39,729 nucleotides of DNA from a virus, in UHGV virus genome UHGV-0230849, one strand, 5' to 3'. Below, in pieces: positions 445 through 19,501 of this stretch. The notes under the pieces were generated by a model that saw only the letters and a program-made list of their open reading frames with translations, was not told where the DNA came from and searched no databases. The translations under genes and the position numbers were made by a program. The first letter of the stretch is position 1, and every line of letters begins with the position of its first letter.

Positions 445-3132
445 CTATTCCACAACATCATCTTCTATCAATTCAGCCTTATTTAGTTGTTCCTTAAGCT
501 TATTCCATGCAGAATCCTCAGGCATCTGTACTCGCACAGAAACGAATTGATTAGCAGGAATGTCGATCGGGTCACCGTTCGAAACACCAGGGATGTCGTT
601 ACGTGCAAAAACGGGCGAGTTATCATGAGTGCGGTGAAACGTTTTCACCAACACAGATCCATCTTGGTTAACAACATAATCCAGCCAGATGAGCGGCTGC
701 TTGTTTCGGTCCTGCGGTATTTCAAATCCACCATCAATCCCCCCCCATGAAGCATCTGCATTCAGACCTACGCAACCCTCAATCAGATATTCACCCAATG
801 CCAGCCGTGTGACGGTTACCCCATCTGATTCGCGATTTGTTTCACTACTACCGTCTGAGAAAATCTTCACAACCGGAGAGGCTTTTTTGATGAAACCACT
901 TGAATCGACGGTCGTGTTCAGCGACGACCATGCCTCAGCCCAGCCTGTGTTACCTGCGCGAATAGCATCGTCTGCGTAGCGGAAGAACAGTTTTGATGTT
1001 GTGGACATGAATATCTGCAACACACGGTTTTTTGCATATCCTGACTCCCATAATGCTCCGTTACCTGTTCCTTCTGGCTGCCAGTTTGTCACCCCACCTG
1101 CAGCTCCTATACTTACACCAGTAGACCAGTCTCCAGCAAATTCTGGAAGATTTAGTGAGTTAGGTGAGCGAATTGATACATCAACCAGACCAGGGGATCC
1201 GAGAATCGACATGCTGCGGGAGGACACCTTAGTAAAAGAGTTGTACCCGCCGTTTTTGGAAATCCTTCCTGTATAATTATTAGCCCTGTTAGTTCCATTA
1301 ACTGTAATTTCCCAGGTATCGCCGTTGATGAAGTCGATCTGCAATAGGCAGAATGCTGGCAGCGTCATCTGTCCTGGCGCAGATGGCCCACCTTCAAACA
1401 GTGGCATATCCTGTTCAAGATATGTCACATATCTACCTGCATCTGTATTCCGCAAATAGTCACAAATAGCCTGTGCCGATGTAAATAGCGCAATACCATC
1501 AGCCGGGTTCACAGGGTGACGGCCAGCGTTAATCACCCTTCCGCGAGGGTTAAATAACTGTGATGAGGCATTGGATAGCGGAGTCATGTCTACTGTTCCA
1601 GGTTCATTAGATGGACAGTTAGCGCGAATGATGTTTAAAGTCCTATAATTTGATCCGCCCCCATTGTCATAGCGAATAGACTGTAGAAGATACAATTCCT
1701 CAGAGCCAGAAATATCACAAGACTGCACCCCCTCATTTTCAGTGGAGTAAACACTCTTCCCTGAATAACTATCCCAGTATGTTTTGAAATCTGCAGGTGA
1801 CAGCAGGTACTGACCTAATTCTGAACCATTAAGGCTGTACTCAATATAACCCTGCAACCCTGCGAAAGTATTTCCAGATCCCGCCGTGGTAGATGCACCA
1901 ATACCAGCAAATATCCGTTGAGAACCAAGAGCGACACCCTGCCGTTTTGGTTTACCGGCTCCGCGACCTCCAACATTTGCATCAACCGTAATAGTCCCCA
2001 TTGGACTGTAAGATCCTTCTATAAGGCTGTTAATATCCAGTGTGTTAAAGATATTGGATACACCTGTCTCAACATCAAAAATTTTCGGCCAACCCATATC
2101 CGCATTTTCGTATATCAGGGTATTACCAAAGCCACTAAACTGATATCGCACTCCAAGGCGTGTTGATTCAGTGAAGTTTGTAATCTGCGTTTTATCAACC
2201 AGCGTACGCGGATCTTCGATAGGGTAAATTCTGATAGTGCGAGATGGGCTGTACGGCAGCAGGATGTAACGCTGTCCTGCCACTCGGTAAACGTGGATGC
2301 CTTCTGGTGCACCAACGTTATTCGGAAAATGAAGACGTGTTACCAATGCTCCTGTTACCCAGTCATGCACCGTAACCCATACCGATGCGGGGTCTAGCGT
2401 CTGCCAGCCGATGTATACCATTCCATCATTGCTGTCTATGTAAATCCCCTGAAATCCCATGGTCGTGTAACCATACTGATCTTTAAGATCTGCGGTAATC
2501 TCATCGTCTATGATGCTGAATTCTAATTTCCAGTTCAGCGGCCTACGCGTACCACTGACATGCCTAGAAATATGAGACAGGTAGCTTTTAACCCCGCCTG
2601 CGATAATGTATCTATGTTTGATCTCAGTAACAATTCCATTTGCAACTGGAGTGCATTTATAGACGCCGCCGTTTATTCTAATAAAATTGGTTCCTGTTAG
2701 ATTATCCCCAATGGCAACGTCTTTTCTACTATTCTTAAACGTCCCATTACCTAAGTCAGTAACAAGCAATGCCCCTTCTACATATTTCAATGACTGATCA
2801 GGGTCATACTTCAGCACATTAGGAAAATAGAACTGCTGCGCACCATACGCATCATAAACAGCCATAGAATGGCCTTGCACGGTAACGAATTTGGCAATCT
2901 GTCCGTTATATACTGGATACCCTGCGGCATTGATGACGATTGGCTGTGCAACATGAACGTGAGAACCATCTTCGTTCTCTACATAAACCTGAATCTGGTT
3001 TTCAGGATTTACCGGGTCAGTGTCAATTTTACCGATATAAATTTTGCCATTGGCTACGGCTTTAAAAGAGCGGGCCATAGTGAAGAGTTGCGAAGGCATA
3101 CTCACTACAACATTGGCTGTAATGTCTGTCAT
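445..3132 (-). CDS. gp9: Tailspike protein, P22 gp9-type head-binding N-terminus with a different receptor-binding body (895 aa)
   Basis: First ~115 aa ([58 protein letters not shown]...) match P22 tailspike head-binding domain from memory; remainder unrelated to the P22 endorhamnosidase body. Confidence 0.9.
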
Positions 3133-3232
3133 TTAATTTGCTCCAGATACAAGGAATCGCCGCAGCATGGCTACGGTGAATTTTGGGCATAAAAAAACCC
3201 AGCCGAAGCTGGGTCGTTGCGTTGGTTATCTG

Positions 3233-4135
3233 TCAGTAGTTATGTACTGAAGGAGGTAATTCTTTATTCTTAAGTCTCATCCATGCGGAAAGATTCGTTG
3301 GTCCGTCTGGCTCATTGATATCAACATCTCGTGAGTGATTGATTAAAACGTCTCTCGCTATATCGATAATACGGGAGAACTCATAACCGCAGTCATGACA
3401 TCTGCCGGAATAGTTCGATTGAATTTGTTTCAGCGCCGGATACAGTTCGCGGAATAATGCCTGTGAGCGGTTGGCATAATCCCATAGCCATACAAGGCTG
3501 TTTGCTTCTTTTGCAGAAAGCTCGTTGGTTTTCTTCTCTTGTTTGCCGATGAACTCACCTTCAAGCACTACCCTGTGGATGTACTCTACGGCTTGCGGTA
3601 TCTGAGATGCATCAAGCTCTTCAATACTTTCCACATTGAAACGCTGATGAATCATTGCATAAGCTTCTGGGTACATTAGATGCTTTTTGCTGACTAGCAT
3701 ATTTACAGCATCACGAAGCGGAGTCCTGTCATCAACAGATGTTTTCTTACGTGCATTTTCTGCCTTTCCCTTTGTCCAGTAGTCATGCAGTACAGTAAAG
3801 CATTCTTCCTGGTACTGAATCAGTTTATCGCGGATGTCAGCTCGAACTTTCTCAGGGTTGATGCTGAACAGCCATCCATTTAACTTCTTCAAAGGAAGGC
3901 AGAGTAGCTTACGAAGCTTCCCATCAGCGGCAACCATATTCATATGAATACAGTTGAACTTATCTAGTTGTTTCATAAGTTTTTGTTGCTGAGTACCCCA
4001 ACTCATTCCAAGGTTTTCAACGATTGGCTTCATCGCAACGTATGCAACTCCGGCAGCCATGGCGGTGATAATTTGCTGACCGTTGAATGGTACGTAAGAG
4101 GTGTTCACTGCTTCTAAAATTGCTATACTATTCAT
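3233..4135 (-). CDS. ant: Antirepressor Ant (P22 immI); ORF extends to 4165 but homology suggests start at [10 protein letters not shown]
   Basis: 300-aa product directly downstream of arc in the arc-ant arrangement. Confidence 0.8.
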
Positions 4136-4203
4136 GTTGGTTTTTCTCCACGGATTTACTGACAACCGAAGCCCTGACTGTTCCCGCAGTTGGGGCTTCC
4201 ACT

Positions 4204-4365
4204 TTACGCGCCAATGCGCCCTTCCTTCTTAAAGCTTTCCATTACTCTCTGATAAATCTCAGAGTTAACAGACCGACCATTCTCTTCCGCCACCTTGCGT
4301 ACCAAATCCAATGCTTCTTTAGGCCACCGCAAATTGAACTGCGGCATCTTGCTCATTCCTTTCAT
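4204..4365 (-). CDS. arc: Arc repressor (53 aa)
   Basis: [53 protein letters not shown] matches P22 Arc; the upstream in-frame ATG in the ORF track is probably not used. Confidence 0.95.
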
Positions 4366-4381
4366 ATTCACCTCACAATAT

Positions 4382-4398
4382 AGGTCCACCGTGGACCT
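4382..4398. promoter_or_regulatory. Mnt operator (Omnt) within the divergent Pant/Pmnt region
   Basis: aggtccaccgtggacct, a 17-bp near-palindrome matching the P22 mnt operator, between arc and mnt. Confidence 0.8.
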
Positions 4399-4407
4399 AT
4401 TGAGAAT

Positions 4408-4428
4408 ATAGTAGAGTGCTTCTATCAT
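4408..4428. promoter_or_regulatory. Arc operator (Oarc) overlapping Pant
   Basis: atagtagagtgcttctatcat matches the P22 arc operator (ATGATAGAAGCACTCTACTAT) in reverse complement. Confidence 0.85.
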
Positions 4429-4455
4429 GTCAATACACTAACTTGGAGTGATGGC

Positions 4456-4707
4456 ATGGCTAGAGATGATCCGCACTTTAACTTCCGTATGCCTATGGAA
4501 GTAAGGGAGAAATTAAAATTCAGGGCGGAGGCGAATGGGAGATCAATGAACTCCGAGTTGTTACAAATCGTCCAAGATGCTCTATCAAAACCATCGCCTG
4601 TGACTGGATATCGTGACGATGCAGAACGACTCGCTGATGAGCAGTCAGATCTTGTTAAGAAGATGGTGTTTGATACGCTGAAGGATTTGTACAAAAAACC
4701 CACCTGA
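4456..4707 (+). CDS. mnt: Mnt repressor (83 aa)
   Basis: MARDDPHFNFRMPMEVREKLKFRAEANGRSMNSELLQIVQDALSKPSPVTGYR... matches P22 Mnt. Confidence 0.95.
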   Translation: MARDDPHFNFRMPMEVREKLKFRAEANGRSMNSELLQIVQDALSKPSPVTGYRDDAERLADEQSDLVKKMVFDTLKDLYKKPT

Positions 4708-4722
4708 CGGTGGGTTTTATTA
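4697..4722. terminator. Bidirectional rho-independent terminator (end of mnt and end of convergent accessory operon)
   Basis: aacccacc-tgac-ggtgggtt hairpin flanked by A-run upstream and T-run downstream; mnt stop codon sits in the loop. Confidence 0.75.
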
Positions 4723-5139
4723 GTGCTTGTATAGGTTGAACTCTCTATCAAGCCATATAACAAAAAATGTCGATCCAAGACGATAACCAACCATGGCTTT
4801 CAAATCATCAAATCTAAAAGCCAAGAAATGATCTACGTCTTCCGTTATATGACTGGGGATACCTGCTTTAATTGCACCCCTTGCAATCTTCTCAAATCCA
4901 AGCTTATGCCTACCTTGCTGCTTAATCTCTGCCCATGTTAGTTGACTTAATCTGTATAATTTATCAGCTAAGCCAGCTTTCTCATCTTTTTGGCATTTCG
5001 TTATGCAGTGAGAGCTTTGGATGTAACAGAATGAAAATTTCGGTTTCTTTTGATCTGAATTCCCCCCTGACTGCGGCCCTAACTTTAACTTACCTGTAGA
5101 TTCAGCAGGGGGGATAATCCTTTTAGATTTTCTTGCCAT
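4720..5139 (-). CDS. Small protein (139 aa) coupled to the Panacea-domain gene; candidate toxin partner, C-terminus reminiscent of RelE/ParE-like toxins
   Basis: ATG at 5139 lies 4 nt after the upstream stop; C-terminal ...AMVGYRLGSTFFVIWLDREFNLYKH. Longer ORF-track start (5214) overlaps the upstream gene and is probably not used. Confidence 0.55.
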   Translation of the reverse strand: MARKSKRIIPPAESTGKLKLGPQSGGNSDQKKPKFSFCYIQSSHCITKCQKDEKAGLADKLYRLSQLTWAEIKQQGRHKLGFEKIARGAIKAGIPSHITEDVDHFLAFRFDDLKAMVGYRLGSTFFVIWLDREFNLYKH

Positions 5140-5143
5140 CTCG

Positions 5144-5587
5144 TTAGTTAATCCGAGTTGCAAAGTACTCTGCCATCTCCTTAGAGCTAATTTCAGAACC
5201 ACCAACACCCTCAATATAGTTTGATCTCCATGGTGACTCTTCGTGTGTCATGTTCCTCAGTTTCCAGGCAGAAAATTGCCCAAAAACATCCCAGACTTCT
5301 TCTAATAGCTCTAACTGTTCTTCGCTGAATTTTTCAGCATCAAAAGACTCTGGAGAAGGGATAGCGCCATTACCATATTGTTTATAACGGCGATAAAGCT
5401 CAGGGACAACAGGGCCATGCATCCAAGCTTCCATCTTATTCTGAAAAAGAGGCTCGCCAAGCAACGCCAATGAAAAACCCTGAGCATAGTAAACAAGCTT
5501 TTGTAATTTTAAATTAGAGATTGTGTCACCGCTATCCTCGTCACACCGCGACAGGAAGTAGTCGGCGACATCAAAACAAGTAAGCAT
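5144..5587 (-). CDS. Panacea-domain (DUF4065, SocA/GepA-like) protein, putative antitoxin
   Basis: CFDVADYFL...ISNLKLQKLVYYAQGFSLALLGEPLF...EAWMHGPVVPELYRRYKQYG matches the Panacea signature from memory; GGAGG 7 nt upstream of ATG at 5587. Confidence 0.75.
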   Translation of the reverse strand: MLTCFDVADYFLSRCDEDSGDTISNLKLQKLVYYAQGFSLALLGEPLFQNKMEAWMHGPVVPELYRRYKQYGNGAIPSPESFDAEKFSEEQLELLEEVWDVFGQFSAWKLRNMTHEESPWRSNYIEGVGGSEISSKEMAEYFATRIN

Positions 5588-5961
5588 GAACACACCTCCA
5601 TCTTGATAGCCACAGCTAAGTATCCAACTATGTCAAATGTCATTTAATACTATAACAAAGCTATCAGCAATCCTTCGGAGGCTAACTTACAACCACTTTA
5701 GCGACATGTTTAAACCATTACGTTTCACATTTACTGCATTTTCGCCGAAGTTACCTATAAGGTAATGTCACATTTCCTGCAAGTTTCATGCAATGTTGAA
5801 AAGTGAGCTATTCACTTTTCTATGACACCAAACACCAAAAATAGCACTTTTTGCTAAATCATTCGTCCAAGTTGTGGATGGTTTGTCGTTGACACGTTTT
5901 CACACACCACTCCACCAATAAAGTATCATCTGGTATCCTGCGAAAAACTAAGGAGGTTGGT

Positions 5962-6291
5962 GTGTTAGAAATAGTAGTACTCGCTCTTGGGATATCCTGT
6001 TGCGTACTATATGCAGGGTTAGCTGCCCTCAAGAAACAGGTTAAGGAATTAGATCGCTCACATGAAATTGATACAAAAATTGCGCGATTAACTGAAGAGA
6101 ATAAACACTTAAAAAATTCCATAAGGGCACTAACTGATGACAACTACAAACTGTCCCATGCATTGGCTAAGTGGGAAATAGTAAGTTATGAAAGAATGAC
6201 CGACATGATTTTTTCGTCTTATATGGCTACAAAATCTCCTGAAACATCAGGAAAAGCAATAATTGCAGCCATTGAAAAGAGAATTAAATAG
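5962..6291 (+). CDS. Hypothetical membrane-anchored coiled-coil protein (109 aa), divergent moron-like ORF
   Basis: GTG start with AAGGAGG 6 nt upstream; hydrophobic N-terminus (LEIVVLALGISCCVLYAGLAAL) then charged heptad-like region; opposite strand to the virion operon, preceded by AT-rich intergenic DNA. Confidence 0.55.
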   Translation: MLEIVVLALGISCCVLYAGLAALKKQVKELDRSHEIDTKIARLTEENKHLKNSIRALTDDNYKLSHALAKWEIVSYERMTDMIFSSYMATKSPETSGKAIIAAIEKRIK

Positions 6292-6310
6292 CCTTCCTTG
6301 GCGTTCATTT

Positions 6311-8152
6311 CTACTGCCTGGTAGCTTCGTTAGTTAGGAGAGGGCGAACGGCGTTAGCAGCCTGATTTAACGCTCGCTCATATGCCGGAGTTCCAGGCTT
6401 GACGTTTGCAAGGCGGAGAAGCATGTTTCTTGCTGCTTTGGACTCATACAAGCGCATCATTGCACCAAAACCAGCCTCAAGCCCCATTGATACGCCAAGG
6501 GTCGCAGTTGCGCCAATCGTCCTTATCCTGTTGGCTTGCGATTGCCCCGTCTGAGTTACTACATTTGCGGTGTCTGACCTTGCTGTTTGCTGTAGAACTT
6601 CATGAAGAGCATCAAGCTCTTTCATGTGCTTTCCAGAAAAAATAGTGTTGTAAATTTCACCGCCTGACTGAGATTTCAGCTTATTAACTTCAGTGATGAA
6701 CTTGGCTGGAGAGTCCCCGGCCTTTTCCGCTATTTTGCTGACGTAAGCTGCACGCATAGCATCTTTCCCCTTATCATCCAGTGCGCTCCAGATTCGTTTC
6801 ACGTCAGATGGTTTTCTGCTTAATACAACGGTATTTATAAGTTCAGGACTGGCTTCACTGCTTGCCTTGTTGAGCTTGTTGGCAATGTTTTTATTAAGCA
6901 CCTTATTATAAACGTTTGCATAATCGGAATTTGCTTTAAGGTATTTTGCTGCGTCTGACGCACCGAGGTTTTTTGCAACTGCGTTACGAAGGTCTTTTGA
7001 CATTGCATTCTCTACCATATTGGTAGCTGCTTTTGCCTGGTTGGGGAAGACCATAGCATCTCCCTGAACATTAGATCTAAATGCTGTTCTGTGCTGACGC
7101 AAGAGATCAAACGTAACATCCAAATCAGTTGCAGGGTTTGCTAATTCTTCACGTAGGTTACGCAAGGATGTAAGCAGGCTTTGATTGGCAGACGTCCCAA
7201 GCCGTTCCTGTCTTGCGATCGCTGTATTCAGAGCATTCATGGTATTTGTGGTATCAACTGCGGCATTACCCATTTTATTGGTGACGTCATTGATAACAGC
7301 GCCAGCGGCATCCTTCCGCCCCCTTAACGTGGTGGTCAGAGATTTCACCACATCATCAGGGTTGTACTCACCAAAACGGTCAAAATAATTGCTTACCAGC
7401 TTACTACGCGTTGCATATTGCTCCGCTCGCTTTGAGCCTGTCCCGAGCAAAGCCCCCTCGGCATCCTGAGTAAGGCCGCGAGTGAAAGCATTTTTCGGCG
7501 GGATAACATCAGATGTCATTGGTGTCACGCCCATCGATTCTGATGTGGCAATTTTCTTCGCTACTTCTGGCGCAATATCACCTTTTATAGCCGTTATTCC
7601 ACGCCCTATTCCCTTTGCTGCTGCGGAAAGAACCCCCTGAGCGGCAAGGTTAACTCCGGCATTTTTTGCTGCATTTTGTGCGAAATCGCCTTTCTGATTT
7701 GCGGCCTCTGCCAGTGATCCAATAGCCATGCTTCCTGCCGTTCCAACTCCTGGAACTAAATACCCGCCAATTGTTTCTCCAGTTTGCGCATAAGGGTCTG
7801 TCGGTCGATCGACTGGACGATAGACATCATCCAATACTTTTGGACCACCAAGCCCCTGACTGATTGCATTAATCAGACTTGCGCCACCCTGCAATACGTC
7901 AAATGGTATGTTTACCAGACCACGACCAGCCTGTTCTGCAATTTGCCCTGCACTTTGACCACCAGTGAGCCAATCGCCAGCTTGTTGCATCAATGATGGT
8001 TCTTCACGTGCTGGTTCATTGCTATCCTGGCTGACAGTTTGTTGCTGAACAGACTGTCCAGCAAAATACTCATCAATGGCAGATCCAATATCTTCCGTGC
8101 TCGTACCATCAGGGAAGGTAAATGTCTTACCGTTTGCAGTTACTTTCATCAT
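6311..8152 (-). CDS. gp16: Ejection (injection) protein gp16
   Basis: [32 protein letters not shown]... matches P22 gp16; 613 aa. Confidence 0.9.
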
Positions 8153-9564
8153 TCCACCGTAAATTGAATGCCTGATTTTGAGGTATATGATCCAACCTGA
8201 TTCGGTGTTTCTCCTGAAGGTGTCGAATCTTGCGCTGGTGCTGCGTCAGTATTCATTGACATATACCGCTTAACGGCACTCCCCAATGATTCACCTTTTT
8301 TAACATCCAACCCCAATATCTGACCGCCATTACGCGATTGTCCAGGGTTGCCATTCGCGCTCATCCACTCGGCTTTAAACTCATTAAACTGCGCGTTTCG
8401 TCGCTCAAGGTTTGCCATTGCATCAAGCCATCTTGCGACCGTCTCAGGGTTATCCATGTCAGTTGGCGCACCCTGTCGAACGATCTCAACGTCTTTATCC
8501 GTTGCTGGGCCGGGAGGTAGGAATTTAAGAACCTGACTGTTAACAAGGGCATTTTGGCGGATGCGCAAATCACGCAATGTCGTATCGCTTCCGGTAAGTT
8601 TTGCGAACATGTTCTGTGCGTTACCGAACAAACCTGTCGTTGGTTTTTCTGCTCTGAACTGTTGAGCAAGCGCACTCATAGAATTGGCTGAGTTTGATGA
8701 TGCTGTGGCATTGTTTACAGCCGTCTCGATGCCTTTTTCCATGTTTACTGACAGCTTAGGTGCTTCACTAATCAACTGCTGAGCCTTTTCCTGCGCTTGC
8801 TGCATCTTAAACCCGAACTCTTGCTGATCCAGAGCCAAGCGTTGTGCTGCGATATTGTGCCCAGTCATTGCTGACTGATAGGAAAGGTTTTGCCCTCTCG
8901 CCTGAAGTGCTTCACCAGCCTGATTGCTGCGGATTGTCTCTGCCAGCCTGCCTCGGTCAATTTCACGACCAGCCATCTTATCCTGAACAGCAAACGCCTT
9001 TTCTGGTCCAAGCGCACCGAGAGACATAGTAGTCAGCATGTGTGATAGCTGCTCTGGATTCTGGATACCTGTCTGAATCATCCAGTCAGCATTAGCACCA
9101 ACGCGATTTAACCTGTCCTTGTTGTCAGTAATGAATTTACTGTAGGCTTCCGGTCCCTGAGAAAGAGCGACGTTAGCCCTCATGGCTAAATCGCCCATAT
9201 CGTTGCGTTGCTGATCATTAAGACCAGAAAACGCCTGTTGTGCCTGTGCAACAAACGCTGGATTTTCCTGGGCAAACTTAAATAGTCCCGATGGATCACC
9301 AGAAGCCCATGCATCAGCGTGAACCTTATTGAACGCACTAATCGCTTTCTGTTGCTGTTCCTGATTGTAAATATCAGCAACTCCAGCCAGACCACGTAAC
9401 GCGGTCAGACCAACGTTATTTGCACCTGATCGAGCCAGTTCATTGTTTTCGCGGATCAGACCAAGCGTTGCGTTAATGTCGCTTGCTTTTGGCGCATTCT
9501 CATTTTGCGCACCGATGCCAGCAAGAAACCCACCAGAATTAATACCCTGTTGCCACGTAGCCAT
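8149..9564 (-). CDS. gp20: Ejection protein gp20
   Basis: 471 aa, in P22 order between gp7 and gp16. Confidence 0.85.
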
Positions 9565-9574
9565 TGATTAACCC

Positions 9575-10267
9575 TTAAAACAGTGAACCAAGCAGACCAA
9601 GACCGCCGCCAACAGCGGCACCAATACCAGTACCAATACCAGGTACAATGCTGCCAAGCTGTGCTCCAGCAATTGCTCCAGATGCAGCCCCGCCTATTGC
9701 AGATTGAAGGCCGGAAGGTCTGTTAGCGTTTGCCGCCGCCAGTGCTGCGCTTTGCTGTGCAATGCTGCTCATGTTGTTGGCGTACGTCTGCCCGGCGTTT
9801 GCCTGACCTTGCAGTGCGCCAAGACCAACATTTGCCAGATTCTGGTAGTTGTTCATCTGACCAGATAGCCATTGCTGACCAAGCGTTGGTGCGATTGTTG
9901 CTAACTGATTACTGGTTGCGGTGGAACCCAATCCACCTGTTGCTTCCGCTGCCGCCAGACTCTGATAGCGAGCCTGACCTGCAAGGTCTTTATACTGCTG
10001 AGAGTTGTAATACTGGTTAAGTGCCTGACCTTGCCCCTCCAGAGACGATAAGTTCTCGAGGCTGCCGACATACTTCTCAGCCAGAGGAGTAAACGGCTTC
10101 AGGTTGTTCATGATGGTGTTGAACTGCTGATTTTGCAGGTCTGCGGCATACTTCTGAGCTTCTGCTGCATACTTTGCGCTTTTATCGGAGCCACCTTTCC
10201 CGCCTTTTTCAGGGCAATAAGGTTCCTCGCCGCGCAGTTTTCTGCCCAGCTTAAATGCATATAACAT
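9575..10267 (-). CDS. gp7: Ejection protein gp7
   Basis: 230 aa, MLYAFKLGRKLRGEEPY... with Gly/Ala-rich C-terminus; P22 order. Confidence 0.85.
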   Translation of the reverse strand: MLYAFKLGRKLRGEEPYCPEKGGKGGSDKSAKYAAEAQKYAADLQNQQFNTIMNNLKPFTPLAEKYVGSLENLSSLEGQGQALNQYYNSQQYKDLAGQARYQSLAAAEATGGLGSTATSNQLATIAPTLGQQWLSGQMNNYQNLANVGLGALQGQANAGQTYANNMSSIAQQSAALAAANANRPSGLQSAIGGAASGAIAGAQLGSIVPGIGTGIGAAVGGGLGLLGSLF

Positions 10268-10269
10268 GG

Positions 10270-10725
10270 CTATCTCCCGTGATTCAGGAAGTCGATTAGT
10301 TCTTCGCGTGTGGCGCTGTAAAAAGTCACGTCATCCACGCCTTTGAAGTATTTCTTGATGGTTCCTACACGCTTAAGGCCAATCATTGCGCAGTACATCT
10401 GACCGTGGCGGAATTTGCGCGCAGCGAACGATGTGACGCACTGAACGGTGGTGTTAGTCAGAATGTATCGCCAGAACGCCAGCCCGATTTCCTTGCTGAA
10501 TCCACGAACCTCTGGCAGGTACATGGCGTGGCAATCGAATGTCAGCGGCTGAATCTCCTGATAGTAAACAATGCCGCCGAACTGCCCGTGCACGCTCACC
10601 TCAAAGTAACGGCATTCAGGTTTGTAGTCGTATCCATCACCGTTGTTGCTCCCGGCGATAATGTCATGGTGATTTCCTACGGCTTCTATCAGGTCGATGT
10701 TTCGCGTTGGTTTGAATGTAATCAT
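10270..10725 (-). CDS. gp14: gp14-like virion protein
   Basis: 151 aa, placed between gp26 and gp7 as in P22. Confidence 0.7.
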   Translation of the reverse strand: MITFKPTRNIDLIEAVGNHHDIIAGSNNGDGYDYKPECRYFEVSVHGQFGGIVYYQEIQPLTFDCHAMYLPEVRGFSKEIGLAFWRYILTNTTVQCVTSFAARKFRHGQMYCAMIGLKRVGTIKKYFKGVDDVTFYSATREELIDFLNHGR

Positions 10726-11426
10726 CAGTCAATCAGCCCATGTAATCTAAGTGCCGTTTCAATCGCCAGAATACGCTGCCGCGCCTGCTGCAAACCTGTA
10801 GCGAGAGCCGCGACTTCGGATTGTGTGTACGTAGTGCCGACCGTGTATGACTGGTTAGCGTTGAATGAGCCAAGAAGAGGTGTACCTGTGGCTGCAGTCC
10901 ATCCGGTATTTCTTGCTCCAACAACCTGAATTCCATCAACTGAATATGATGTTTTTACATCCAGCGGTGACGCAAGAGACTGCGATTCGGTTATGGTTTT
11001 CGATACGTAATCACTCTTAATGCCAGAGACATCGTTTTCTACGTCATCCAGTCTTTGGTCAACAGTGACCAGATGCGCCTGAATATCGATAACCTCATCC
11101 AGCAAGTAATCAACATCGCTACGCAGTACGACTATCTTCCCTTCGGCAGTTGTTAACCTGACCTCAAGTAGATTTATCGCTTTTGTGTTTGCGGTGATTC
11201 TTGCGTCGTGATCAGCCAGTTCGACATCCTGTTCATCGTTTTTTACCTGGGCATCGTAAGCGCCCTGACCAGCCTGATTTGCCTTCCCGGCAATTGCGCC
11301 GACATCAGCCCCCTGATTAATGACATACAGCAGGTAAGACTGGCTGAATATATTGCGTGGCAAAATTGAAGCATCAAGCCGCGTAGCCTGAACCACAACA
11401 GGATCATTCAGTGATGAATCAACCAT
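10725..11426 (-). CDS. gp26: Tail needle gp26
   Basis: 233 aa; N-terminus ...[70 protein letters not shown] matches P22 gp26; coiled-coil. Confidence 0.9.
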
Positions 11427-12844
11427 TACTCAATCCTTATCTGGCAGCCAGACAGAGTGACAGGTGACTTCGTGATAACGCGCAATTTGAAGCCGACATT
11501 TTTCCTGATGCGCCCGACTCGCTTCCACAAAACACGTTTGTCGTAAACGAACGGTTCATTCTGTTCAATCATCTGCTCACGCCCGTAATTGATGCCGTCA
11601 GTGGTTGCAGAGAGGAACAGGCGGTCGGCGTACTGAGCGACACCAGTCGATGATTCAACTTCCAGATCAAAACATCTGGCGTTATCCGCTTTGAACAACG
11701 GAGTAAACAACAGGTGTTCCTGTTGCTTGTCGTACTGGCTGCTGATATCGAATTGCAATTTCCCGGTCACCGATTCCAGCTTATCGCCGCACGTTATCTG
11801 ATTGCCTTCGTAAATGAAGTCGATAGCGCGGTACACATCGTCATACAGGCCTGTTTTCAACACACACCATTGCGGACCATTGGCGCTTGAAGATGCGTCG
11901 TAAACAAGAACATGGCGCGGCAGGTGAATAATCAGCAACTCATGAGCATCAAACCGCAGCGATTCCATCACCCCATCAGCCAGTTCATCAGCAGTGTAGG
12001 AGCGTAGTATTTTCTCAATACTCGCGCTGGCTATTGGTGATACCTGACCGGAGCCGATGATATACACAGACGGCGCACCTGTTGCCGGATTGCTGATGAA
12101 CGCATACGAGTCAGCAAACGGCGTTTTGCAGTAGGTTCCGGCAATGCCTTTCTGCACCATCAGCGATGGTTGTGCAACATACAAAGCAGCACCAACTGTG
12201 GTTGCACCAGTCAGGGAGAAATATTCAATCGTCGACGAACCAAAGCAGACTATGAAGTCTCGCCATGTACCTATGCCGATGATGCCGTCAGGCTGCGACT
12301 CTGCGCGATATTGTGCGCTGTATCGGTCAGGGTGCGATTCATCTTCAAGGTCAGTGATAAACCATGAATCAGTTCCGTCTTTTGACCACGCATAACGCCC
12401 ACGTAAGCGAGTAATGTCGCGGACTGAACCTAACTCATACTGCGTGAATCCGCTGTCTGTAGGCCAGTTTGAGACGGTTTTAACCGTGCCATCATAGCGA
12501 TACTCGACCAGTTGACCATTAACGCCTACCGCCTGTGATGTCCGACCATGCGCCATTGATACGCGACCACTTCCGGCGACGTCACCGACTTCGCTTTCGC
12601 CTTTGTAAAGCTTCCCACCACACACGCGATAAACAGCATTCTGCGCCATGTTGTACTCGACGCCGCGCGATACGCCGTTCACATCAGAACGTTTGGCAAT
12701 GCCCGGGAATGAACGAAGATATCCGCTGCTGTTAAGGATTTCTTTGGGGGTTGCCAGCATATTCACTGGCAGATAGTCGATATAGTCGGCGTTTCGGAAG
12801 TCTTTGCCGACACCTTTCATAAGCGGAAGTTGCTGAATCGGCAT
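11426..12844 (-). CDS. gp10: Tail accessory factor gp10
   Basis: 472 aa, P22 order and length. Confidence 0.85.
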
Positions 12845-13345
12845 TTATTCGCTCCCGTTATCGCAAGGTTCCTTCCGGTGGAAGTAATTCCAACCGTTCC
12901 ACTTCGCCAACTGATTACCGCTACCAACAGGCATACGGTTTGGATAACCGGACTTACATTTAGCGGCTTTTGCTCTGTCCATTGCAGACAGTTTGACGAG
13001 TCGCTCTTTCCCGTATCTGGCAGTGGTTATAAGTTTTGCAGACGCTTCCAGCGCATAATCTGGAGCAATGCGGCAGGCAAGGTTGAAAATGACGGAATTG
13101 ATAGCGTTATTTGATAAACCGTGCTCATCGCCCGGATCTGGAGCGACATCTGCATCAGCGAAAATGTAGCCAACGTTGATACCAGGTGACGCATCACCTC
13201 CAAGCCATTCAGCCATCATCATTTCAAGGTCGTTGACGCCGTCTTCCATAGACTGAGGTTCGACATCGGTTAACGTGGCATTTGATGCCACACCGAGCTT
13301 ACGTAATGCCGCAAGAACTAAATCACCCTTCGTTGTCAGGTTCAT
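12845..13345 (-). CDS. gp4: Tail accessory factor gp4 (start inferred at [10 protein letters not shown]; ORF is open upstream to 13432)
   Basis: [29 protein letters not shown]...[14 protein letters not shown] matches P22 gp4; upstream in-frame extension encodes [10 protein letters not shown] from a hexamer repeat. Confidence 0.8.
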
Positions 13346-13571
13346 CTGATGCCGCCTTAGGGTTTCGACCAGGCTTTTTACGCTGCTTTTCTTCTGACTC
13401 TGACTCTGACTCTGACTCTGACTCTGCAACATCCTTCAGAAGGTCATCAGGATGTGCAAACCAGCCAGCATCCAGATATTCCTGAAGATCTTCGGCTTTC
13501 ACGATTTCAAAGTCGTATCCAACGCCTTTCCATTTCTTCATGTCGCCATGACGAAAGATCATGTGTGTCAT
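13323..13571 (-). CDS. Small acidic ORF (82 aa) between coat and gp4, containing an (ES)n repeat
   Basis: ATG at 13571 with GGAG 8 nt upstream, just after the coat terminator; [66 protein letters not shown]... Confidence 0.45.
13393..13426. repeat. Tandem hexanucleotide repeat (TCTGAC) about 5.7 copies
   Basis: tctgactctgactctgactctgactctgactctg read directly; gives (ES)n in the small ORF frame and (SQ)n in the gp4-extension frame. Confidence 0.95.
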
Positions 13572-13585
13572 GCTTGTCTCCAGAT

Positions 13586-13606
13586 AAAAAAAGGAGCCGA
13601 AGCTCC
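13586..13606 (-). terminator. Rho-independent terminator just after the coat gene
   Basis: Minus strand GGAGC-UUCG-GCUCC followed by seven U, 10 nt after the coat stop. Confidence 0.85.
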
Positions 13607-13615
13607 CCATGGTTA

Positions 13616-14911
13616 TCACGCGGTCTGGTTAGGCAGACCAACACCAATTGCCTCTGGTCGTACAGCACATGCTGAATACCACACAGCAATACGGCACTTA
13701 CCAGACAGAGTGTTGATATCACCCTGCGTTGCGAAGATGCCGTTAACACCAATGCCAGGAATGCTGAAGGAAGAAGTTTTCATGCCAGCAAACAGTTCAT
13801 GGGTTACCGGGATCGGCTGAGACAGCAGGCGGATTGAGTCATCAGCCCAGAACACGTTAGCGGTGGTTGTTGCCACGTTCAGAACGTTTACCGGAGTGGT
13901 ATCAGCAAGAGAGGTGTTTACGTTAGCGTAAGCCTTCTCTTCTTTTGTCAGTGACGCGTCATCCAGTGCAATCGGTTTCGGCGTGATTTCGATGTGAGTA
14001 TCATCGATCACACGGGTGATTGAGAAAGTCGCATCATCAGTTAGCACGTTCTTCGCCATCTGAGACAGGAATTTCACACCAGTGAAACTGATTTTGTCGC
14101 CGCGCTTAAATCCGGTGGTGGAGGATACGGTCACCGTTGCAACACGGTTGTCGACGTTCTCTTTGTTACCATCGGTATCAAGGGTGTATGCCTGCGGCTT
14201 AAACTTCTGCGCACCAGACACAGTTACACCAGTAGCGGTTGACTTGGTAACTGCCGGAAGTTTCGGTGAGCGAAGAATTTCATCAAAGCCAGCAATCTGA
14301 CGCTGAATAGTACCGTTGCGATACGCTTCTTCAGGAACGCGCCCGAAGATGTCACCATCTACAAGATTGCGGCCTGCTTTGCGGTAATCGTCAGGGTTCA
14401 GGAAGTAACTGATGCCCATATCGCGGTTTAGCTCACGGGAGAACATCAGGCGCTCTGCATCAGACACAAAATCCCAGCCAGACAGGCCAGTAGATGGACC
14501 AATTGCGCGGGTATCGTGAACAACAAGTGAGCCCATTTCAGTTGCCTGTTTGGCAATTGCTGACTCAATGTTATTCGCCAGTTTTTTGGCGGATGCCTGG
14601 ATGCGGCGACGGTAAGAACGCTCATCACGCAGGTCATCTGCACGAAGCTCGAAGAAATCGTTATCCGGATCGCCCATGTTGCATTTCACGGACAGTTCCA
14701 GAATACCGGTAGCGTTGCCAGTTAAATCCCAGCCAGTCTGAGTTGGCGCTTCCTGCTCAACAGGCATCCACACGGTGTTGCTTGAACGTTGCATGGATTC
14801 TGCCGGAGGGGTGTATTTTGTCACTTTGGACGCCATTGGCGTCAGGTTCTGGACGGTTTCGATGATTTCATCCAGAGCATACGTGACCAGTTGACCTTCA
14901 TTTAATGCCAT
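13616..14911 (-). CDS. gp5: Major coat protein gp5
   Basis: 431 aa; [20 protein letters not shown]...FAGMKT...GLPNQTA matches P22 coat. Confidence 0.95.
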
Positions 14912-15822
14912 TATCGAATTCCTTTATTCAGTTGCGCCTTGAGCTTGCGGTATGTCTCTACATCCCCTTTGTTTGCTGCCGCTTCCATCTGCTTTTCAAT
15001 CGCAGATATATTTGCAGCAACAGCGTGTCCCTGAATGGGTTCATCAGGTAGCGGGGCTTCTGAAACAGGTTTGGCTCGAGGCTTGAGAGTTAAACGTTCT
15101 GACAGTCGAGTGAGTTCAATCAGCGCGGATTGCCCGTCCATCGCCAGCAACTGGCGTGTTTTCTCAGGATTAGCACCAAGGTGATACATGAGAGCGGCGG
15201 ATTTCTCCGGGAAGAGGCGCATGATGTCGGCACCGACTGCTGGCGGCACCAGTTGCATGAATGCATCCTCTTTCTCCTGATAGTCAGGGATATTGAGCTT
15301 TTCCGCTGCGTCGTAGTGCTTACGGGCTGCCTCGACGTATTGCGCTGATTGCTGGGTGAACTCCTGAGTTTTGCGACCCTGCTCGGCGACAGCCTGGCTT
15401 CGTGCGTCCATAGCCTTGATCTGCCATTCACTGTTTGCCTGCTGGAAGGCAGCCAGTGCGCGGCTCTGGTCATAGTCGTACTTAGCCAGCGCATCTTCGG
15501 AAAGATAATCGTTAGGGTCTGGTTGTTTTGGTAACTCAGGGTTCACCCGCAGGTGCTCCGGCAATTCTCCACGCTTAACCGCTTCCATCTGCTGCTCAAG
15601 CTCACGCTGGCGTTTGCGTTCGATGCGGAGACGGGCAAATTCAGCATTAGTTGCCGGGTCTTGTTTTGGTTTCTCATCGTCTTTCAGGACAATCTCGAAG
15701 CCTTCTTCCTGACCTGCGTTGTCGTTGGCATTATCGACAACTAAGCCATCAGCAGATGCCGCTGCATGATTGCCGGGCAGGGTTAATTCTTCAGAAGCCT
15801 GAATGTCGGTGGTTTGGTCCAT
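14911..15822 (-). CDS. gp8: Scaffolding protein gp8
   Basis: 303 aa, acidic helical protein between portal and coat. Confidence 0.9.
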
Positions 15823-15835
15823 GATTAACTCTCTC

Positions 15836-18001
15836 TTATTGAGGTGTCTCGGCTACTCCGCCGGAGGGGGTTTGAACTTGACGCATAAGACTCGCGAAAT
15901 CCATGCGTTGTGAATGAGTCTGGTCTGCATCTTTAAGAAGCAGCTCAGCGTTAGCACGAGCGTCTTTGCTGCGCTGTTGCTGGAATTGACCTACGAGCTT
16001 GAGGTACTCACGCAGTTCTGCCTGCTTGTCGAGGTCCATATTGTTGAAGATTTCCGCAATCTTCGCGGCGTTGAGTTGGTTTTGGGCTTCAACCTTGGCG
16101 GCTTCAACCTGAATCTGCGCCTGTTGGTTCTCTGCCTTGAGCAATTCAGCCTGACCTTGCAGAAGGATACCCTGCGCCTGAATTTGCTCTGCTGATGGCT
16201 GCTGCGGCTGCTGTTGCGCCTGTTGCACCATCTCCATCTCTTCAGGTGTTTCTGGTTTCTTCAGCCCCATCATCACCAGTTGCTTGTTCGCGTACTCTCG
16301 CATCATCTCGACGCCTTTACCGTCAAGGAGCGTGAAGTATTGCAGCATCAGCATCTGGAACTCTGGAGTACCTTGCGGAACCTTGGTGAGCAATTCCTGA
16401 ATCTCTGCGCGGTTCTGTTCCTTCATGCTCTGGAAGGATGGCCCAACGTCCGTATAGCACTCATAGCGACCGCGAATGTCGTTGAGTGTGACCACATTGC
16501 CTGACTGATAATCGACAACTTGCGCATAGAGTTGAACGTCTTTCTCGCTTCCATCTTCAAGTGTCAGCGTTACATGACGAGGAACGTCATAAATATCGTT
16601 GACCATTGAGGCATAAATCTCGCCATCACGTCGCATTGCGGTAGCCAGGTTATCCTGAAACACGTATGTCTCAAGGTCTGCCCGCATGTTCAGTTGATTG
16701 ACGGTATCGAAAGCGACCTGAGAGTTTGCTGCCTGCGCATCCACGCCAAGACTAGCCACCTCTTTCACTGCGTTGGTGGCGGCCTCAAGCATGTAAGCGT
16801 TGGCTTGCGGCACTTCAGGGTTTTCCATGTAGGAGATTGGACCAATCGGCAGGTCGTTACCGTTTTCATCGGTCTTGTTCTGCAGATAGTACGGATAGTC
16901 ATCATTTCCACCGTACATGTATTCGTAGCCTTCGATTTGCTCAGGGAAGAAGGTCGGTTTCTTCTTCGGTGAACGAGCAACAATATCGGCGTTGAACGAC
17001 ATGATCATGTTACGAAGGCGTTGACCGTCTTTCGTCAGCCTTACCACTCCTTCGTAGCACTCCTTGTCACCAGCGAATGACCATTCTCCATACACTGGAA
17101 CGATTGGAATATGCTCTCCGGCTATCTTCTCGCGGTCTTTCAGGATCTGCGTGCAGGTGATGATCGACTTATACACACGCCGACGCTTCACCTTGCGCTC
17201 TGCTACCTTAATGAATCCACGATTAGCCAGGTCGTCGATGACGTCTTTGATATCCTGCTGGTAATAGCTGACCGGCTCACCTGTCAGCGGGTCGCGATAG
17301 ATGAAGACTTTCTCCTTCTTCTCTTCTACCTCGTAATACTCAGCGACGTAGACGACATCATTCGATACCCACGGAAACAGCCATGTGTCGTTCGGATTCT
17401 GGAAAGATGGCAAGGTATCCGGATCAATACCGTAATCCTCTGCGAACTCTTTCCAGCCATTGCGTGACAAAGCGTTAATCACCGTGCAGTGCTTAGCGTC
17501 GCTCTTATCCATCTGCTTGCTGTTGGCGTCCCATATGACGTGTGAGCAGGCTTCATGGATTGGCAGGCGTCGGATTACCTGATTGTTGCTTGTTGGGTCG
17601 TTATCTTCGTACTGGGTGACCAGACGCCATGCACCAACGCCGGACTCTATCTGCTCACGAACGCCAACGTTAACGGCAATCTTTGCCGTGTTATGGCGCA
17701 TATCAGTACGATACATCCCCATCAACACATCGGCTGCATCAGGATTAGCGCCGTCTTTGGGTCGGAAGAGAACGTCGATAGGGTTCCGGCGCATCTCTGC
17801 GACCAGTTTCCTGACCACCGGGCGAACAACATCGAATTGTCCGCGATATTGCAGGGTAGTGTAGTTTGATAGCCAGTCATCCCATTGCGACACTCGGCTA
17901 AAATACAGGTCATTTGTCGCCTCGGTTCTGGCTTCATCGCTCGCCATCCAGTCCGCGTCAAACTTACACAGAATGGAATTGAGTCTGTTTTCGTCGGCCA
18001 T
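15836..18001 (-). CDS. gp1: Portal protein gp1
   Basis: 721 aa, P22 position and size, Gln-rich C-terminal barrel region. Confidence 0.9.
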
Positions 18002-19501
18002 TTAAGTTCTCCGTGCGATGGGCCTGATTGGGGCTGGTATCTTTTTCTCTTTTGGTTTTTTGATGTCGCGCATCATTTTTGCGAAGCGGCGCATCATGTA
18101 TGCATAGCGAACGGCGGATAGCACGTCGTCGTTAAGCTTGACGATTTTCCCGTTTTCATCACGGTGATAGAGGCGGAACTCCTCAAAGAATGGCTCACAG
18201 GTGTTGAATACTTTGAAGCGACCATCGAGCATCATGTCGCGCAATTCAGTGATGCCAGGCTCAACAGCATTACCGCCATCAGGCCATGTCGCATGCTCCT
18301 GCAACATCATAAAACCAGCATCTGCATACTGCCCTTTGAGCTGCTCACCGCCGCCCTTCTCATGCTGGTTTCCGTCATGAGGCCATGCGGTTGGCACTTT
18401 ATGCGCCCATGATTTAACGGCCCCCCACGCCTGAACGGCTGTTTTTTCTTTCGCCTTCCACACGCGTGAAACGTAGATTGTGTCTGCGTCCTTATCCCAC
18501 CAAAGCTGAACCTGCGCCTGCGGGTGATCCCATCCGAAATCCATACCGCCAATTACATAGAAGTGATCAGGACACTCGAACGGCTGACACTTAATCGTCT
18601 CTTCCGGTATCTGGAAGATTCGACCACTACCCATCGTAGGAATACCGCGAGCACGCGCCTCTCTCTCATGCTCAGGATAGGATGCGATGATTTGCTCTTT
18701 CTGCTCGTCGGTGTAGTGCTCAGCGTCATAGATGGTCATGTTGACCACTTTCTGAGACTTGCTGGGATTCTTCAGGAACTTGGTAACAACGTCAGACATC
18801 CCCATCAGCGGGGTAAACGTCAGAATTGAGAATTGCCCGTATTTGTTTGTACGGGTAAGCCCTTCGCCATAAATGCTGTATGGTGGCTCTTCGTCAAACC
18901 ACACGCCGTGGATTGTGTCACCCTGCCAGCGAGCGCGGCCTTGCGAGTATGGTTTGAAGTAGCAGATTGAAATGCCATCTTCAACGCCATCAGCCGTGTG
19001 ATGCTTAACCAGAAGATGATCAACAAGGTTCGGAAAGAAAGGAGACTTCTTCCAGCTAATGATGTCTTCTTTCGGTATGGAACCGTAGCCCGGCTCGTCA
19101 TTCTCTTCGATACGACCGCACAGGATGCGTTGAGTCGTTTTGGTTACAGTCTCGTTTGTCTCGCCACCAATCCAGAAGACAACAGGCTCATAGAAACGCT
19201 TACCTTTCCACTCCCCGCCATATTTACCATCAGCAGGATAGCCTTTTGTGCCCGGATAACGCCCGGTAAGGTGAAACGCGACTTCAGCAGCACCAGTAAA
19301 TGACTTACCAAGCTGGTTACCAGCCATAAAACATCGCTCTGGATAGTCATGCCCGGCGTCGATGAACTCACGCTGTTTGCTGTATGGCGTAAATTCATAT
19401 AGCAGGTGTGTGTTCCGGTAGTTATCTTCTTCTTCGAGTAGCTCGAGCAACTCGATTTGCTCTTCGTCGCTCAGGTTATCAAGAATCGCGTCCAGTTCCA
19501 C
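18002..19501 (-). CDS. gp2: Terminase large subunit gp2
   Basis: 499 aa; ATPase and nuclease motifs; P22 order. Confidence 0.9.

Follow-up and report, generated by a model that had tools for sequence, protein, structure and literature searches.

At least 13 cassettes alternate in the sieA slot of P22-like prophages, and one of them encodes a predicted membrane protein of 109 residues

Results

The locus

The window analyzed here is a stretch of 39,729 nucleotides from virus genome UHGV-0230849, read on one strand from 5' to 3'. It is a P22-like (Lederbergvirus) prophage, and over bases 4700-6320 it shares 99.9% identity with a prophage in the chromosome of Escherichia coli GPEC859. We examined an open reading frame (ORF) of 109 amino acids that lies at 5962-6291 on the plus strand, starts with GTG and is preceded by the Shine-Dalgarno sequence AAGGAGG (5950-5956, plus strand), 5 nt ahead of the GTG. 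In the GPEC859 annotation the product is the hypothetical protein WP_000890120.1 (phrog_8100), and its neighbors are a Panacea-domain protein and a 139-aa hypothetical protein.

The ORF is convergent with gene 16, which encodes an ejection protein (6311-8152, minus strand), and the stop codons of the two genes are separated by 19 bp. All homologues examined have the same convergent placement beside gene 16, and the distant ones sometimes overlap it. Every large virion gene of the window, from 445 to 19501, is carried on the minus strand. Upstream of the ORF is a noncoding spacer of 374 bp (5588-5961, a length that assumes that the divergent Panacea-domain gene, panA, starts at the ATG at 5587). 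Published work on P22-like phages calls the region from gene 16 to the tailspike gene (gene 9) the "ant moron". It is highly variable: its cargo is sieA in P22 and hkcB in HK620 (PMC2629481; PMC8022706), and its content differs among otherwise syntenic phages (PMC2629481). The base composition is that of a moron: GC content is 36-39% across 5550-6299, whereas the window as a whole has 47.3% and gene 16 has 43-52% along its length.

A sequence-only reading of the window had described a real ORF on the strand opposite the virion operon, with a perfect AAGGAGG ribosome-binding site (RBS), a hydrophobic N-terminus followed by a coiled coil, and a divergent Panacea gene beyond the spacer. Each of these observations held. 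The same reading had called the ORF an orphan, and this was wrong, since homologues with identities as low as ~50%, and lower still in P0017, all occupy the equivalent place in their genomes.

A conserved junction shared with sieA

The ORF begins at a conserved junction of ~34 bp (TGGTATCCTGCnnAAAACTAAGGAGGTTGGTGTG), which in the window reads TGGTATCCTGCGAAAAACTAAGGAGGTTGGTGTG (5931-5964, plus strand). The junction opens the 109-aa ORF, P22 sieA, HK620 hkcB and at least 10 other unrelated small genes, and it was found in 73 phage records. It marks the point of exchange for the DNA upstream as well as for the gene downstream. In alignment, the start of the ORF at the junction (...AAAACTAAGGAGGTTGGTGTG) is the one found at P22 sieA. 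When the window was aligned with SE1, HK620, Emek and P22, all five shared TGGTATCC-TG-nnn-AAAACTAAGGAGGTTGG-(T/C)GTG, with an identical RBS, GTG start and ~20 nt upstream; the Shine-Dalgarno sequence of the ORF is thus also that of P22 sieA, HK620 hkcB and Emek orf129. Downstream of the junction these five phages carry four unrelated genes (the 109-aa ORF, hkcB, a gene for a 129-aa secreted protein, and sieA), and upstream of it they carry two unrelated sequences. Because both the junction and the placement are shared, the 109-aa ORF occupies the sieA slot and uses sieA's translation start.

The same break point was seen when the locus was searched by megablast, in which the matches split at 5931-5971. 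Bases 5594-5971 matched Emek and phiv205-1 at 99%, bases 5931-6305 matched SE1 and ST160 at 91.7%, and the match to HK620 consisted only of the overlap of ~40 bp, between hkcC and hkcB. On the right, the boundary is CCTTCCTTGGCG (6292-6303), the window's version of a (G)CCATCCATGGC-like palindrome that lies beside the gene 16 stop codon; most slot families end just ahead of it. We propose that the slot lies directly after gene 16, convergent with it, with the ~34-bp junction as its left edge and the short palindrome as its right edge. Short conserved flanks around unrelated cargo would fit exchange by homologous recombination, which may shuffle the cargo genes and the upstream DNA alike. Such flank-mediated exchange agrees with how mosaic boundaries in lambdoid phages are classically understood.

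Census of the slot

Two sets of loci were compiled. For the first, IMG/VR was scanned for the junction and 120 loci among the matches listed were taken, so that the junction is present by construction. The second was anchored on the tailspike head-binding domain and is independent of the junction. In the junction set (120 loci), the gene after the junction belonged to 12 unrelated protein families that were freely combined with at least nine unrelated upstream types. At least five unrelated upstream sequences preceded members of the 109-aa ORF's family, and the PanA spacer stood ahead of at least eight slot-gene families.

In the tailspike set, the tailspike start was located in 60 loci; in 56 of these, gene 16 was followed by a convergent ORF, whose product was at least 50 aa long in 54. 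The exact junction pattern was present in 25 of these 56 loci, with variants in others. With both sets pooled, 13 families were recurrent, and 12 of them have a transmembrane segment, a signal peptide or a lipobox. SieA is the only slot family with a functional annotation, and PADLOC and Pfam searches with the other slot families returned nothing; even SieA was not matched. At least 13 cassettes, the 109-aa ORF among them, occur as alternatives in the sieA slot of the P22-like ant moron. Among complete E. coli genomes, the PanA module with its spacer was present in ~85-110 and the ORF in 17, with both adjacent in only one. In the ant-moron literature that we examined, we found no statement of a precise cassette structure, of a junction carrying expression signals, or of a census of at least 13 mostly envelope-protein families.

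Several other slot occupants were noted. A 161-aa lipoprotein with an LLAGC lipobox (phrog_6067) was the occupant in 11 of 54 tailspike-anchored loci, and another occupant of this set (L176-L255) was a 212-aa SieA type-B-like protein with a FNRYPGEARKFNK motif. Some tailspike-anchored loci carry a second small membrane-protein gene in tandem beyond the palindrome. A 62-aa slot gene is intact in phiv205-1 and UPF_BP1 but lacks annotation there. We considered whether orf62 of phage L belongs to this 62-aa family and rejected the idea, as tblastn found no such family in L or ST64T.

The gene and its family

The 109-aa ORF is a genuine protein-coding gene, and its family is narrow. It comprised 14 clusters in an index of 5.8 billion proteins. 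An exhaustive profile search of 1.84 billion representative proteins yielded only five clusters at E < 1e-10 and no annotated relative, and the species-representative genomes of GTDB contained no members. Homologues with identities down to ~50%, together with the more distant P0017, come from Klebsiella and from metagenomic P22-like prophages. These homologues retain a membrane anchor, a leucine zipper and the near-invariant C-terminal stretch KWEIxSYExMTDMIFxSYMATKSPETSGxxIIAAIExR. Conservation of the ORF in related prophages, which the sequence-only reading had named as a check on its proposal, was therefore found. When the two main alleles were compared, the ratio of nonsynonymous to synonymous substitution rates (dN/dS) was ~0.25 for the C-terminal part and, from small counts, ~1 for the anchor and coiled coil. 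An intact copy of the ORF is also present in phage SE1 (NC_011802; L001 3032-3361), in a RefSeq record that carries no annotation for it.

Architecture of the protein

The protein has three parts: a single hydrophobic segment that forms the putative membrane anchor (residues 4-23), a GCN4-like leucine zipper (residues ~33-71) supported by sequence matches in the PDB, and a strongly conserved C-terminal domain of ~45 residues (66-109). The AlphaFold2 model (pLDDT 85) consists of a helix from residue 2 to residue 90, a loop at SPETSG and a second helix at 97-108. Matches to PDB sequences were confined to GCN4, Fos and Jun zippers. A Foldseek search of the model against the PDB returned nothing, the model being little more than a single long helix. 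The heptad "d" positions are occupied by I36, L43, L50, L57, L64 and W71 and the "a" positions by I40, N47, I54, N61 and L68. By the rules for coiled coils, Asn at "a" positions favors parallel dimers.

No family member has a Lys or Arg ahead of the hydrophobic core, and all have two to five within the 15 residues after it. From this charge pattern the positive-inside rule predicts an N-out/C-in orientation with the zipper and the conserved domain in the cytoplasm. The product would be a bitopic inner-membrane protein with merely two or three residues outside the membrane and, on the cytoplasmic side, a parallel dimeric leucine zipper followed by a conserved helix-loop-helix domain of 45 residues.

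Two other assignments were considered. The string "IIAAIE" had prompted the idea that the C-terminal domain (residues 66-109) is a ribbon-helix-helix domain; this was rejected, as hhalign gave a probability of 1% against the Arc/Mnt type, no Pfam ribbon-helix-helix family matched at E up to 10, and the AlphaFold2 model has a helix where a strand is expected. An i-spanin (Rz-like) does not fit either: the gene lies in the ant moron and not in the lysis region, and the coiled coil is predicted to be cytoplasmic (an o-spanin partner was not searched for).

The DNA that encodes the SPETSG motif has a feature on its other strand. A terminator-like hairpin with a T-run (6235-6254, minus strand, the strand of the late operon) lies ~60 nt after the gene 16 stop codon, within the ORF codons for the conserved MATKSPETSG. 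It is kept in locus L134 by means of compensatory synonymous changes, is broken in the Klebsiella homologue (L131) and is absent in L130.

Expression signals

The spacer scored poorly when searched with a sigma-70 position-weight matrix (best score, 9.5; mean best score of shuffled sequences, 10.6), whereas the promoters Pant and Pmnt scored 13.6 and 16, respectively. A consensus scan found no sigma-70 promoter inside the spacer and no convincing one on either strand, and a weak candidate, TTCACA-N19-TATCAT, was the second of two. The first lies in the junction, which contains TGGTATCCT, an extended -10-like element 10 nt ahead of the Shine-Dalgarno sequence. The candidate, TGg-TATCCT, would have its TG at 5931-5932 and its hexamer at 5934-5939 on the plus strand.

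Five distinct sequence versions have the pattern TGnTAnnnT 10-13 nt ahead of the Shine-Dalgarno sequence. In distant family members the stretch has diverged and reads TGGTAAAGT, TGATAGAGT or TGATATGCT with unchanged spacing, and another junction type carries TGATAAAGT as its extended -10-like version. In the tailspike-anchored loci the pattern was found in 30 of 53, compared with 2.6% by chance, although most of these 30 represent one homologous sequence. P22 sieA is transcribed at a low level in lysogens and is functional with only 85 bp of upstream DNA (PMC10883804). Because the ORF is found behind unrelated upstream DNA and sieA functions with 85 bp, the signals that drive expression are most likely close to the gene. 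The junction would supply the RBS and the GTG start and probably a weak extended -10 promoter (TGnTAnnnT) as well; a promoter in the junction upstream of the 109-aa ORF is plausible but unproven.

An alternative source of expression is read-through from Pmnt, the nearest strong promoter on the strand of the ORF, because no terminator was found between mnt (4456-4707, plus strand, as is the ORF) and the ORF; no convincing terminator was detected on the plus strand. The stop codons of mnt (4707) and of the gene for the 139-aa protein (4720) are 12 bp apart, with no terminator detected between them, and transcripts from Pmnt could run antisense across the PanA operon towards the ORF. Two segments of the spacer are complementary to the start region of the ORF: the 20 nt at 5817-5836 are 80% complementary to 5952-5971, which holds the Shine-Dalgarno sequence and start codon, and 5897-5909 is 85% complementary to 5958-5970. 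Both could mask the RBS if transcripts start far upstream.

Discussion

Function of the 109-aa protein

We favor the view that the ORF is a slot-cassette gene for a prophage-expressed membrane protein with a role in exclusion or defense at the level of the envelope, by analogy with SieA, and we give this view a probability of roughly 45%. The protein would be made at a low level in the lysogen and would protect the cell at the envelope, most likely at the inner membrane, where it would hinder incoming P22-like phages from delivering their DNA, as SieA does. The sequence-only reading had seen here the layout of an independently expressed lysogenic-conversion or exclusion gene. The first part stands, in that the arrangement fits a prophage moron with expression of its own in the sieA slot; the second has been proven experimentally for SieA and is suggested for the ORF family by its position.

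The likeness to P22 SieA (phrog_7745) extends from the gene to the predicted protein. Both genes lie in the same slot, convergent with gene 16, and have the same RBS, GTG start and ~20 nt upstream. SieA is a small inner-membrane protein, as predicted for the ORF product, and both have a short acidic N-terminus without Lys or Arg, then a transmembrane segment, then a basic stretch. The most conserved motif of SieA is also predicted to be cytoplasmic (PMC10883804).

A similar comparison can be made with HkcB of HK620 (phrog_5962) and its homologue in epsilon34. The slot, the junction and the length of 109 aa are the same, and HkcB likewise has an N-terminal anchor starting M-(L/F)-E, a coiled coil and a conserved C-terminal tail. 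Its N-terminal charge pattern is that of the ORF product and of the first transmembrane segment of SieA. The function of HkcB is likewise without assignment (PMC2629481). The relation between the two does not extend to the C-terminal domains, which are unrelated: hhalign gave a probability of 59.6% over 36 columns, in the coiled coil only, and the proteins belong to separate PHROG families. The ORF product and HkcB are best treated as analogues, or as homologues that have diverged beyond recognition.

A number of observations weigh against a SieA-like role. The 109-aa protein is not a SieA homologue as judged by sequence: the two have no sequence or profile similarity and fall into separate BLAST clusters and PHROG families (phrog_8100 and phrog_7745). 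The ORF product has one transmembrane segment while SieA has three or four and no zipper, and the SieA motif FxRYPxEAxxFNK is missing from it. Searches of Pfam, PADLOC and the PDB with the 109-aa protein gave no match beyond coiled-coil noise. Occupying the same slot is no proof of the same function; phage L is described as lacking sie functions although its 16-9 interval contains a small gene (PMC8022706), and one of the 13 recurrent slot families looks soluble. Most of the junction loci are related by descent, and counts made on them are not independent. As for expression, ~10 rarer junction types are without TGnTAnnnT, and the TATCCT candidate scores below the shuffled mean with the position-weight matrix.

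The SieA analogy can be carried further, to a proposal that we put forward only tentatively and regard as doubtful. The gene 16-proximal slot would be a recombinase-free site of cassette exchange, at which the junction (a promoter independent of a -35 element, the Shine-Dalgarno sequence and the GTG) and the right palindrome allow any of at least 13 unrelated small envelope proteins to be swapped in and expressed at once. The cassettes would act as rotating entry blockers against the fast-evolving ejection proteins gp16 and gp20 (gene 20, 8149-9564, minus strand). The 109-aa protein would represent a new class of exclusion protein: a cytoplasmic zipper dimer, tethered to the membrane, that uses its conserved C-terminal domain to block the ejection-protein conduit at its cytoplasmic exit.

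Other roles were weighed against exclusion at the envelope. The protein may instead be a defense effector that acts after entry, as in abortive infection, with a membrane-anchored dimer whose conserved cytoplasmic domain detects a phage product, upon which the dimer damages the membrane or stops growth. A conserved domain predicted to be cytoplasmic could meet phage proteins, the anchor and coiled coil evolve fast (dN/dS near 1), and the gene adjoins a toxin-antitoxin module in an accessory region of the prophage. We consider this role unlikely: no PADLOC model matched above noise, the single anchor of 20 residues has no pore-forming features, and the association with the PanA module is incidental.

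Lower still in our estimate, and quite improbable, is a lysogenic-conversion factor directed at host physiology, for example at division or envelope complexes. The idea comes from FtsB/DivIC (PF04977), proteins of similar size in which a single transmembrane segment is followed by a leucine zipper. Residues 8-66 of the ORF product match PF04977 (E 0.0037), at a score of 17.5 bits that is well below the gathering threshold of 28.9 bits. The predicted orientation is opposite to that of FtsB/DivIC, as the zipper of the ORF product would be cytoplasmic, and the ORF is phage-borne, its family being confined to the gene 16-proximal slot of P22-like phages.

That the ORF is a nonfunctional passenger, its frame kept by hitchhiking or its DNA serving the late strand through a feature such as the embedded hairpin, is very improbable: the dN/dS near 1 over the first 65 codons of the two main alleles and the compensatory synonymous changes that preserve the hairpin in L134 would suit such a passenger, but frame, length and architecture are kept to ~50% identity with the C-terminal 45 residues near-invariant, the Shine-Dalgarno sequence is strong, and the hairpin is absent in L130 and broken in the Klebsiella homologue, which keeps the peptide motif.

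The upstream spacer and the PanA module

The upstream DNA had been read as ~370 bp of AT-rich noncoding sequence with ATGTCA motifs that might act as operators for the ORF or for the divergent Panacea operon. Its 374 bp are noncoding, closed by stop codons in all six frames, and hidden coding was rejected on these grounds; the GC content of 38.5%, against 47.3% for the window, makes it only moderately AT-rich. Three copies of ATGTCA are present, ~2 nt from where they had been placed: two form the tandem ATGTCA-A-ATGTCA (5630-5642, plus strand; starts at 5630 and 5637) and the third is at 5765-5770. Their number does not exceed chance. The whole window has 28 copies where 27.4 are expected; ~80% of spacers simulated with a first-order Markov model hold some hexamer at least three times, and in the real spacer four hexamers reach three copies. 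In relatives with a ~95% identical spacer, the tandem ATGTCAAATGTCA is replaced by GTGTCAAGTTGCA. The ATGTCA copies are at chance level, are not conserved and have no demonstrable role.

We consider it hardly credible that the spacer is the ORF's own regulatory region or that ATGTCA operators control the ORF, the PanA operon or both. In favor of such operators, three copies in 374 bp exceed the ~0.26 expected locally from the window-wide rate, the tandem contains on the PanA strand a TTGACA that is kept in the 95%-identical relatives, and the spacer is more conserved than the diverged panA alleles that adjoin it. Against this, the tandem pair is lost in close relatives, the TTGACA has no -10 element at a usable spacing, the best promoter score of the spacer is below the shuffle mean, and PanA has no recognizable DNA-binding domain. 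The spacer is inherited with the PanA module and not with the ORF, and it is freely combined with other slot genes, as the census shows for both. Next to these diverged alleles, which have 68% nucleotide identity and a toxin partner that is unrelated, the spacer is kept at 88-99%, with identity climbing towards the junction, and its most conserved part is the last ~140 bp (5792-5931). The spacer probably holds the leader or promoter of the PanA operon. The observations of the sequence-only reading were thus partly confirmed and its interpretation was partly supported, and the operator idea should be dropped.

Other features of the spacer were examined. No RNA family was recognized in 5400-6400 by Rfam at E up to 1, and folding z-scores of about -2 on both strands fit DNA palindromes and not a strand-specific RNA. 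A perfect 9-bp inverted repeat, GAAAAGTGA-N5-TCACTTTTC (5798-5820), lies in the best-conserved part; it was rejected as an operator, since two noncompensating substitutions break the repeat in one locus, L021 (3480-3920 of IMG/VR contig 2703719355_000015). The same locus was the only one to suggest that the last 140 bp are a separate module, and this too was rejected, L021 being a microhomology deletion derivative. Its natural deletion, across an 11-nt microhomology, joins a truncated ClpP-like gene, located downstream of mnt, to the spacer's final 140 bp, and the toxin partner, PanA and the remaining spacer have been lost. In some genomes the "Panacea" annotation extends across the spacer, and this reflects merely a 5-bp difference in the called start.

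PanA itself (Panacea/DUF4065; 5144-5587, minus strand) is an antitoxin-type protein (PF13274, E 1.9e-24) whose gene probably starts at the ATG at 5587, behind a GGAGG RBS. Its putative toxin partner, the 139-aa protein (4720-5139, minus strand), was identified as phrog_8366 by a PHROG match and has a weak PADLOC match to NsnC (E 5.9e-6). The two form a toxin-antitoxin-like pair inside the ant moron. Farther along are ant (3233-4165, minus strand), with arc nearby, and the tailspike gene (445-3132, minus strand). The tailspike is 895 aa long, far longer than the 667 aa of P22, and keeps a P22-type head-binding N-terminus, so that its receptor-binding part must differ.

Implications

The 109-aa ORF belongs to an uncharacterized family, and the cassette organization of the slot is the most interesting by-product of the analysis. 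Attention should shift from the upstream "operators" to the ~34-bp junction and to the protein. Of the slot occupants only SieA has been studied, and how it works became clear only in 2024. A dozen or more unrelated small envelope proteins, unannotated and sharing SieA's start signals, are encoded in the slot, and these families, the 109-aa ORF included, make up a ready list of candidate exclusion or defense proteins. The diversity of the slot could help explain why the ejection proteins rank among the most variable virion proteins of P22-like phages.

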